Below, one piece after another: positions 45,001 through 48,000 of a stretch of DNA of 64,000 bases. Each line of letters starts with the position of its first letter. Positions within the stretch are counted from its first letter, which is position 1. Location: assembly GCA_963751275.1 (NCBI GenBank), contig CAVVTZ010000010.1, forward strand, positions 19,012 through 83,011, given 5' to 3'. The DNA comes from an uncultured Gemmatimonadaceae bacterium. GTDB lineage: Bacteria > Gemmatimonadota > Gemmatimonadetes > Gemmatimonadales > Gemmatimonadaceae. A program made the position numbers.

Positions 45001-48000
45001 CCGTCGAGCGACATCTTGAGCGCGATCTCGCGCCGCACCGTGTCGCCCCCCGCCGGCACGATCTCGCCGATGTCCAGGTTCTTCACCGGCACGCCGCGCT
45101 TCACCAGCTTCGCGTGCAGCACGTCGTGCAGCGCGCGCATCTTGAAGTCGTCGTCGGCCACCAGCAGCAGCTTGTTCTCGGCGCGCTTGAACTCGAGGGA
45201 GACCTTCGTGCCCTTGAAGTCGTAGCGCTGCGCGATCTCCTTCTGCGCCTGGTTCACCGCGTTGTCCACTTCCTGCAGGTCGACGCCGGTGGTCACGTCG
45301 AAGGAGCTGTTCGCCGCCACGGTCAGCCCAGGAAGGACTCGAGCGCGCGCGCCCGCGACACGTGGCGCAGCCGCGAGAGCGCCTTCTCCTTGATCTGCCG
45401 TACGCGCTCGCGCGTGATGCCGAGCAGCGAGCCGATCTGCTCGAGCGTCATCGGCTCTTCGCCGTCGAGCCCGAAGTAGAGGCGCAGGATCTTCGCCTCG
45501 CGCTCCTTGAGCGACGAGAGCGATTCCTCGATCGCCTCGGTCAGCGCCTTCTCGAAGGTCTGCTCGTCGGGCGTGGGGTTGAGGTTGTCCGGCAGATAGT
45601 CGAGCAGCCGGTTGTCCTCGCCCGGCGTCAGCGGCGCGTCGAGGGAGAGATGGGTCTGCGAGATCGAGATCGTCTTGGCGACCTCTTCCTCGGTGAGGTC
45701 CATCTCCTGCGCGATCTCCTCGTGCGTCGGCTCGCGGCCCAGCTCCTGCAACAGCGCGTTCGCGCGCTTGCCGATGCGGTGCAGCGTGCCCGCGCGGTTG
45801 AGCGGCACGCGCACGATGCGCGACTGCTCGGCGAGCGCCTGCAGGATCGCCTGGCGGATCCACCACACGGCGTACGAGATGAACTTGATCCCCTTCGTCT
45901 CGTCGAACTTGTGGGCGGCGCGGATGAGGCCGAGGTTCCCCTCGTTGATCAGGTCGGAGAGCGCCACGCCCTGATTCTGGTACTTCTTCGCGACGGAGAC
46001 GACGAATCGCAGATTGGAGCGCACGAGCTTGTCGAGCGCCTCGTGGTCCTTCACCCGGATCAGCTGCGCGAGCCGCACCTCTTCATCGCGGTCGATCAGC
46101 GGATAGATGCTGATGTCCCGCAGGTACTGGTCGAGCGAGCCTTCGTCGTACGAGGACTTGCGATGCGGGGTGACGGCCATGGATCCAGCAGCTCCGGCAA
46201 ACGGACAGTGCGGCAAGCGCGCTAGCGCGAGCGGATCTCCGAGAATGCCACCGGCGCGGTCAGCGAACCCGCGTTCCGATCCTGCTCCAGCGGACGTTCG
46301 TCAGCCACGCCGCCCGGCGCGTCGCGTCGGGCTCATAGCTGTAGTACACGAACATCGGCCGGCCCCGCACGAGCGAATCCGGCACGAAGCCCCAGTAGCG
46401 GCTGTCGGCCGAGTTGTCGCGATTGTCGCCGAGCACGAAGTAGTTCCTCTCTGGGACGACCAATGGACCCCAGTTGTTACGCGACGGATGCGTGCTCGCT
46501 TCGGCCGTGCGCACGAGGAACGGCCGCTGCCACGCGAACTCCGCCTCGCCCGGGTCCGAGTCCGGATCCGTGTGCACCACGTACGGCTCCACGAGCGCCG
46601 TGCCATTGATGAACACCGTCCCCTCGCGCATTTCAACCGTGTCGCCCGGCAGCCCCACGAGGCGCTTCACGTAATCCTTCTCGGGGTTCGGTGGATATTC
46701 GAACACGAGGATCTCGCCGCGCTTCGGATGCTGCAACGCCGGCAGGCGCATGTGCACGAAGGGCACTTCGGCGCCGTACACGGCCTTGTTCACGAAGAGG
46801 AAGTCGCCCACGAGCAGCGTGTTCTCCATGCTGCCCGACGGGATCTTGAACGCTTCCACGAAGAACGGGCGCGCGACGAAGAACACGACCACCACCGCGC
46901 ACACCACGATGAACACCCACTCGCTGAACCAGCGCAGCCGCCACGGCGCGGCGGTTCAGCACGCGCAGCGCCTGGACGCGCTGCGCGTCCGAGACCGGCC
47001 TACCCGGCGTTGCGGGGGTTTTCGAGGGGGTATCCATAGTCTATCTATTAAGTAAGACGAACCTCCGCCGCCCACGCAAGGAGCGCGTCTGGCGTTTGGC
47101 GTATGGTCCGCGGCATGACAATTGATGACGTCCGACTCACGAACCTACTCGCGCCCGACAGAATCAGTTGTCATGCCGCGGACCACACGCTGACGACTAG
47201 ACGCGCCGCTAGTAGTTGTCGATCTGCGCCCGCTGCAGCGTCCCCGAATAGTCGACGTACCCGACTTTGGTCTCCGAGTAGAACTCGTACACTTCCCACC
47301 CGCCTTCGCGATGGCCGTTGCCCGTCTGCTTCACACCGCCGAACGGCAGATGCGCCTCCGCGCCGATCGTCGGCGCGTTCACGTACGTGATGCCGTTGTC
47401 CAGTTCGTTCAGCGCCCGGAAGGCGAGATTGACGTCCCGCGTGTAGAACGATGACGACAGCCCGTATTTGACATCGTTGTTCACGGCGATCGCCTCGTCG
47501 GCGTCCTTCACCTTGATCACCGAGAGCACGGGGCCGAAGATCTCCTCCTGCTCGAGGCGCGAGCCCGCCTTCACGCCGGCGAAGATCGTCGGCTGGAAGA
47601 AGAAGCCGTGCTCGAGGCCGTGACCCGTCGCGCGCTCGCCGCCCGTGACGAGCGACGCCTGCTCGCCGAGCCCGATCTCGATGTAGCGCTCGACCTTCTC
47701 GCGCGACTCCTCGTGGATGAGCGGACCGACGTCGGTGCCCGGCTTGCTCCCGTCGCCGAGCTTCAGCGCCGCCGCGCGCGTCGCGAGCCGGTCGAGCAAC
47801 CGGTCGTGCACGCCCGCCTGCACGATCAGCCGGCTCGTCGCGGTGCAGCGCTGCCCGGTCGTGCCGAACGCGCCCCAGAGCACGCCGTCGAGCACGAGAT
47901 CCAGGTCGGCGTCGTCGATCACGATCATCGCGTTCTTGCCGCCCATCTCCAGCGACAGCCGCTTGTGCATGCGCCCGCACGTCTCGCCCACGATCGCGCC

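Follow-up and report, generated by a model that had tools for sequence, protein, structure and literature searches.

A short sigma factor beside lepB

Which σ factor directs housekeeping transcription in a bacterium that has no standard RpoD? The primary σ factor is regarded as an irreplaceable single-copy gene. The question is raised by a σ70-type gene, here called p1, in the window, i.e. the whole stretch of 64,000 nucleotides that was analysed from the genome (G000) of an uncultured Gemmatimonadaceae bacterium. p1 (45323..46180, minus strand) is an intact open reading frame for a short group-1-like σ70 factor of 285 aa, which tree and residue alignment place in the Bacteroidota (σABfr) clade; two paralogues, p2 and p3, lie on contig C9. 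Regions 1.2, 2, 3 and 4 are present in p1, region 1.2 starting at residue 15, and p1 stays below the cut-off of every group-1 and group-2 NCBIfam model (TIGR02393, 267 versus 354 bits; TIGR02394, 259 versus 378.7 bits), as the survey's finding had stated. The closest named homologues were Gemmatimonadaceae proteins, at 95–96%. A PDB search returned 85 matches without any Bacteroidota-type σ factor, with SigA proteins at the top (253 bits).

All neighbours of p1 are on the minus strand. A YajQ/DUF520 gene (44820..45320) lies directly downstream, and the signal peptidase I gene lepB (46260..46916) lies upstream. Beyond lepB follows a gene that is presumably an aldehyde dehydrogenase (47209..48693), a name given from its sequence and motifs, in a conserved aldh-lepB-sigma block. 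The order lepB-sigma is kept across the phylum, RpoD-bearing classes included. In family f10 the p1 orthologue is preceded by a tandem array of three signal peptidase I genes (L047, L060).

G000, which is 83% complete, contains exactly three group-1-like matches (p1, p2 and p3), and the remaining 10 of its 13 region-2 matches are frames of 185–247 aa. As the survey had claimed, all three are short and without region 1.1 (no PF03979 match in any of them); their TIGR02393 scores were 267, 234 and 205 bits. Profile search placed p2 (295 aa) at C9:528927 and p3 at C9:429768-430662. The length of 261 aa previously assigned to the shortest paralogue has to be revised: in p3 a 1-nt frameshift splits region 1.2, which lies upstream in another frame, from the rest, and orthologues elsewhere read through in a single frame. 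The dnaG gene (G000:C11:22290-24117) is likewise frameshifted. As both genes carry frameshifts, the assembly appears to be prone to indels, and the broken-looking essential genes in G000 are most likely artefacts.

rpoD is deleted from the dnaG locus

The absence of RpoD reflects a real deletion from the dnaG-rpoD-zinc-ribbon locus. In RpoD-bearing relatives the gene order is mutS2-dnaG-rpoD, continued in family f10 by a zinc-ribbon gene and recJ, and the order dnaG-rpoD-DUF164 is reported from other phyla (passages of PMC3372290). In G000, dnaG ends 25–40 bp before the zinc-ribbon gene with no rpoD between them, and the sigma genes are located elsewhere. Because dnaG thus abuts the zinc-ribbon gene where RpoD-bearing relatives have rpoD, we conclude that the gene was deleted. 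The closed genome G245 has the same join.

In a class sample of 121 genomes, RpoD was present in 23 of 27 genomes of family f9 and 3 of 3 of family f13 (26/30 for these two sister families) and in none of the other 91, closed genomes included. Four unpublished genomes (G057, G097, G229 and G230) are counted in these tallies and in the retention and promoter counts given below, and no claim hangs on them. Thus the clade counts and the dnaG join bear out the survey's statement that the genome has no full-length RpoD, but within the class, in our sample, canonical RpoD is kept by two families (f9 and f13) instead of one. In a phylum sample of 151 genomes TIGR02393 was passed in 16, of which one was among 132 class genomes, and other classes of the phylum carried an RpoD of 549–612 aa in 17 of 19 genomes. 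One genome of an otherwise RpoD-less family contains a 374-aa frame for a σ factor of the canonical FSTYATWW type (L019, G118:C43), possibly acquired or a binning contaminant; it forms a long branch apart from RpoD and was left out of the RpoD count.

Could RpoD merely be missing from an incomplete assembly, or could one of the short copies be a truncated RpoD? The completeness of 83% and the indel errors in dnaG and p3 would favour such a view. However, dnaG is joined directly to the zinc-ribbon gene, and the lack of RpoD in closed genomes of the clade, within the 0 of 91, refutes the idea of a gap. Truncation is contradicted by the AU test, in which grouping p3 with the RpoD of the phylum was rejected (p-AU 2.3e-7), as was grouping it with RpoD and RpoS together (p 0.0185). 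We regard this explanation as practically out of the question.

The three copies belong to the Bacteroidota-type family

The likeness to the Bacteroidota σ factor noted in the survey is borne out by the trees, the AU test and an alignment of residues. p1 is 55–56% identical to the σ factors of Bacteroides, Parabacteroides and Hymenobacter versus 44–47% to Bacillota RpoD. All three copies cluster with σ factors of Bacteroidota, Chlorobiaceae, Ignavibacteria, Calditrichota, KSB1 and Latescibacterota, to the exclusion of RpoD and RpoS, with a support of 99 (SH-aLRT) in a quick mixture tree of 65 rows and of 100/99 in a careful LG+G4 tree of 30 rows; the outgroup join drew long-branch warnings. 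p2 and p3 are sisters (99/98). By profile score and tree, membership in the RpoS-like group 2 found no support, as the TIGR02394 cut-off was not passed and RpoS fell outside the short clade in the 30-row tree.

We aligned the copies with E. coli σ70 and with σ factors of B. finegoldii, Flavobacterium and Chlorobiaceae. The σ70 residues W433, W434, Q437, R584, E585 and R588 are kept in all three copies, and the substitutions S428I, T429S, T432V, T440L and H455N are common to p1, p2, p3 and Bacteroides; E458 is also replaced. The region 2.3 motif is FISYAVWW and not the canonical FSTYATWW. In σ70, Q437 and T440 read position −12 and H455 and E458 read the extended −10 element (passages of PMC2613000).

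With canonical RpoD/SigA (E. coli σ70, B. subtilis SigA) the short factors thus share regions 1.2–4.2, W433/W434/Q437 and R584/E585/R588, together with the TTG −35 element, the 17-bp spacer and the T−12 A−11 T−7 register of the promoters described below. They differ in that they have neither region 1.1 nor a non-conserved region, are not encoded beside dnaG and score under the TIGR02393 cut-off, while T replaces A at −8 and H455/E458 are replaced. The closer counterpart is σABfr of B. fragilis and other Bacteroidota, which lacks region 1.1, carries such substitutions and uses a TTTG/TANNTTTG promoter (Vingadassalom 2005, as cited in passages of PMC6847099 and PMC12632263). The two systems are alike in the length of ∼285 aa, the missing region 1.1, the clade, the FISYAVWW and QALAEQSRIVRxPLN signature of regions 2.3–3.0, the sub-cut-off RpoD scores and the T at −8. 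In contrast to the σABfr system, three diverged paralogues are present here instead of one, sister lineages still have canonical RpoD, Shine-Dalgarno sites are present, and a strong TTG(A/C)C −35 element at 17 ± 1 bp occurs without the TTTG extension. The short σ factors are therefore members of a known family (Bacteroidota/Chlorobi, σABfr).

The promoter motif differs from TATAAT at one base

The motif TTG-N20-TAnnTT (i.e. TTG-N3-17) occurred 96 times in the genome, in agreement with the peak at spacer 17 noted in the survey; the 11 off spacers averaged 13.1, and N19 and N21 gave 37 each. TAnnAT, TAnnCT and TAnnGT at N20 reached 30, 34 and 34 genome-wide versus roughly 12–28 off-spacer. Off-spacer counts served as the background, the reversed-pattern control being a poor one. 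By our own gene calls, 88 of the 96 TTG-N20-TAnnTT sites were intergenic. When only intergenic sites no more than 300 nt ahead of a called gene were counted, N20 gave 63 TT, 17 AT, 23 CT and 18 GT versus 1–9 off-spacer, in line with the earlier count of 51 TAnnTT versus 15–19 for the other three.

When the −35 element was not used, TAnnnT peaked 6 nt before ATG starts, and because of this peak before leaderless ATGs the register of the box can be fixed at −12 to −7. TAnnnT stood 5–8 nt before the ATG of 112 called genes; in these leaderless-type sites the base at −8 was T in 70, A in 13, C in 12 and G in 17 (p 8e-18 versus the intergenic background), and TTG recurred at N19–21 in 27 of them. 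Leaderless genes are fairly common in G000 alongside normal Shine-Dalgarno use; a literature search on leaderless mRNA in Gemmatimonadota yielded nothing relevant. The full motif was also present within 120 nt of 18 of the 47 tRNA/tmRNA genes (10 TT, 3 AT, 4 CT, 1 GT).

Over 389 sites, positions −10 and −9 were weakly informative, with a log2 enrichment of no more than 0.56, and the difference from TATAAT was confined to the T at −8. The −10 box proposed earlier, TAGCTT, is therefore better described as a GC-biased form of TAnnTT, its G and C letters being background. An extended −10 TG was rejected (16 seen versus 22 expected). A TTTG extension was found in 17 of 209 TAnnTT sites and the 17-bp spacer is preceded by a TTG(A/C)C −35 element, which rules out the Bacteroidota TTTG/TANNTTTG promoter type. 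The promoter is thus composed of a canonical −35 element (TTG A/C C), a spacer of 17 ± 1 bp and a −10 box with a one-base shift (TAnnTT).

Motif scans of the window gave examples. TTGAGC-17-TAGCTT (43641..43669, minus strand) lies 7 nt before the ATG of a 455-aa radical-SAM gene (42267-43634), which we take to be rimO-like, and this is a leaderless start. On the plus strand, TTGAGT-17-TAACTT (2838..2866) precedes tRNA-Gln by 11 nt, and TTGACA-17-TAAGTT (27989..28017) and TTGTTC-17-TAGCTT (12626..12654) are promoter-like sites. The part of the window near the contig end (60300-63600) is AT-rich, contains several TTG-16/18-TAnnnT sites and is possibly foreign DNA. RNA reads were rejected as a source of start sites, as the best word share was 0.07 and the contigs came from other organisms and gave no start sites.

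The nearest published promoter motif is that of the RpoD/SigA (CT1551) of Chlorobaculum tepidum, a σ factor that clades with Bacteroidetes: dRNA-seq gave TA[ATC][ATC][AT]T, which was likened to the Flavobacterium TTG...TANNTTTG (passages of bioRxiv 10.1101/172254). In contrast to the present case, CT1551 is a single primary σ factor from another phylum, and those passages describe neither a coexisting RpoD nor a takeover by a paralogue. The survey had held that the promoter is not covered in PMC12641261 or PMC11406998, and we too found no coverage in passages of the former and of the main text of the latter.

TAnnTT promoters predate the loss of RpoD

For 73 genomes or records we counted TTGMC-N18-TANNTT and TTGMC-N18-TANNAT, subtracted the off-spacer background and expressed the TT sites as a share of the promoter excess. 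This share was 0.82 in f1, 0.76 in f2, 0.73 in f3, 0.75 in f4, 0.73 in f8, 0.61 in f5, 0.63 in f6 and 0.52 in f7. In RpoD-bearing groups it was 0.65 in f10, 0.65 in f9 (one genome), 0.31–0.38 in f11 and 0.38–0.47 in f12, and in single genomes of Latescibacterota, KSB1, Zixibacteria, Calditrichota and Ignavibacteria it was 0.75–0.99. The values for two Bacillota records were −0.03 and 0.08; these were the only canonical controls with a signal and are both low in GC, so that the canonical side of the comparison covers low GC. A Halomonas record gave no promoter signal by the same count, and nine Bacteroidota-type genomes (Bacteroidia, Flavobacteriia, Cytophagia, Balneola and one Chlorobiaceae) had little or no such excess.

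As the TAnnTT motif is abundant in relatives that keep RpoD, it is not a consequence of RpoD loss. TAnnTT promoters are older than this loss and accompany a p1-type σ factor, in a comparison of kin that are not independent and with few canonical controls. The correspondence with p1 is not clean, since G064 keeps p1 (74%) at a TT share of 0.23. The shares of 0.65 in f10 and 0.31–0.47 in f11 and f12 mean that a tolerant RpoD could also read TAnnTT sites.

p3 is the probable main copy

As the clade has no RpoD, the short σ factors as a set must be primary, and no single copy is strictly universal. In our tally from best matches in the 91 RpoD-less genomes, p3 was retained in 89, p2 in 83 and p1 in 58. 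p1 was also absent from closed f6 and f7 genomes, and it coexists with RpoD in f9–f13; on an evolutionary scale p1 has thus been dispensable, as a group-2 factor would be. RpoD and p3 were nearly complementary in the 121 genomes (both in 1, RpoD only in 25, p3 only in 89, neither in 6): p3 was found in 1 of the 30 f9/f13 genomes, the RpoD-bearing MAG G257, and in 0 of 5 searched genomes of other classes. RNA-seq data on G. phototrophica list only three RpoD/SigA genes, of 861–909 bp (PMC11406998 supplement). With the copies assigned by their neighbours, the log_cpm values in its sheet S1 are 10.35 for p3, 9.61 for p2 and 8.83 for p1 (rpoA, 10.27); in sheet S3 p2 (9.33) is slightly above p3 (9.24), with p1 at 8.12.

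In the closed genome G245, p3 is the only full group-1-like σ factor. In the 2.0 of 2.92 Mb that were read, 7 of 43 tRNA/tmRNA genes had TTG-16/17-TAnnnT (5 AT, 1 TT, 1 CT), and 17 of 41 leaderless sites had T at −8; a genome-wide N20 peak was absent. Four p3-only genomes gave TANNTT counts at N6/7 before ATG versus N12/13 of 135/78, 125/75, 67/47 and 58/41; the same genomes gave 117/114, 109/87, 65/44 and 69/47 for TANNAT. From these counts, the promoter that p3 is predicted to read is canonical-like and relaxed at −8, and the strong −8T bias of G000 probably owes most to p1-type reading. G245 and G058 also encode a fourth, more diverged σ factor (L224 and L227; 34–36% to p1), which keeps regions 1.2, 2 and 4 and lacks most of region 3. 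In another genome p2 is tandemly duplicated, and region 4.2 is changed in one of the two copies (L217/L221, G061:C1:3028301-3030464).

p1 might nevertheless be the true primary factor, as the direct σABfr orthologue, with p2 and p3 acting as stress or stationary-phase factors of a group-2-like kind. p1 is indeed closest to the sole primary-like σ factors of Bacteroidota, Latescibacterota and Calditrichota (55–65% versus 40–47% for p3), it is 74–91% conserved in f1–f5, and phyla of the p1 type show the TT-rich promoter most strongly. However, p1 was not found in 33 of the 91 clade genomes, 12 of these being single-contig, its conservation falls to 54–59% in some others, and its expression is the lowest among the copies in the G. 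phototrophica sheets. Moreover, no promoter motif lies within 300 nt upstream of p1, whereas p3 has a promoter of its own, TTGACC-17-TATCCT. We consider a primary role of p1 unlikely. Full redundancy, in which none of the three would be essential alone and any one would suffice, could account for genomes such as G245 with only p3, G100 with apparently only p2 and G280 with p1 and p2; the residues of regions 2.3–2.4 and 4.2 are common to all three copies, and their expression lies within 3-fold. Yet the uneven retention does not fit equal copies, and G100 and G280, in which p3 was not found, are near-complete assemblies of 2–3 contigs, so that a gap could hide p3. Redundancy of this kind seems doubtful to us. 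Retention and expression together point to p3 as the indispensable copy, a role that p1 in the window probably does not have.

A proposed route for the replacement of RpoD

We consider it likely that short σ factors of the Bacteroidota/Chlorobi (σABfr) type run the housekeeping transcription of this clade after the deletion of rpoD, with p3 as the main copy. Relatives in other classes and the two sister families have RpoD beside dnaG plus the p1 orthologue at lepB, and p1 predates the loss of RpoD. The RpoD-less clade has in addition the sister copies p2 and p3; the searched groups with RpoD have neither, except for p3 in G257. A p1 that already served as a second housekeeping factor would have made RpoD dispensable; p3 may then have become the main, nearly indispensable copy, with p1 and p2 sharing the load and open to loss. 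The kept region 4.2 residues (equivalents of R584, E585 and R588) would read the TTG, S428I, T429S, T432V and T440L in regions 2.3–2.4 may favour T at −8 (the link from 428–432 to −8 being our own suggestion), and the changes at H455/E458 would remove the reading of an extended −10 element.

In other phyla, RpoD over the cut-off was found in 0 of 61 Latescibacterota genomes and in none of five single FCB genomes. Of 81 Zixibacteria genomes, 70 had only the short σ factor, 7 also had a sub-cut-off RpoD-like frame of 487–524 aa, with the canonical-type motif checked in one of these, and 4 had no match at E 1e-60. The seven long genes (L358–L364; 294–315 bits) lie in genomes that also carry the short σ factor, and are possibly decaying RpoD genes, intermediates of a replacement. 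Latescibacterota have expanded the short group-1-like σ factor (G152, G166–G225), one genome having as many as 15 TIGR02393 matches. Because rpoD is retained at its ancestral dnaG site in Gemmatimonadota and patchily in Zixibacteria, these data suggest several independent losses of RpoD.

More broadly, we propose with slightly less than even confidence that the Bacteroidetes-type primary σ factor is an ancient paralogue of the FCB group, once a second housekeeping factor beside RpoD, which displaced RpoD several times independently (in this Gemmatimonadota clade, most Zixibacteria, Latescibacterota and Bacteroidota). In living intermediates two housekeeping σ factors would be at work, on promoters of the TATAAT-like and TAnnTT kinds. 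The role would then have passed, in Gemmatimonadales, to the newly duplicated, fast-diverged p3, and transcription would be split among three group-1-like factors.

Significance

The σ type itself is already known. Iyer and Aravind (2012, J Struct Biol) reportedly mention a modified primary σ factor in the bacteroidetes-chlorobium-gemmatimonad lineage, and the bare statement of a short σ factor in Gemmatimonas would for this reason not be new. Our literature searches (bioRxiv supplements lay outside their scope) found no paper on primary σ factors or promoters of Gemmatimonadota; we did not find in print the coexistence with RpoD, the repeated takeover, the scar of the deletion, a set of three copies of which p3 is likely to be the main one, or the promoter. 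In the literature consulted, the origin of the Bacteroidota exception is not explained.

A large group of common soil and water bacteria lives without the standard housekeeping σ factor, while sister lineages carry both kinds, and marker models based on rpoD miss this clade. The replacement is visible in stages, from RpoD together with a short σ factor to short σ factors only, with a clean scar at dnaG, and the route is testable in cultured Gemmatimonas. Finally, TTG(A/C)C-17-TAnnTT with frequent leaderless starts provides a working promoter model for a phylum that is abundant in soil and for which genetic tools hardly exist.
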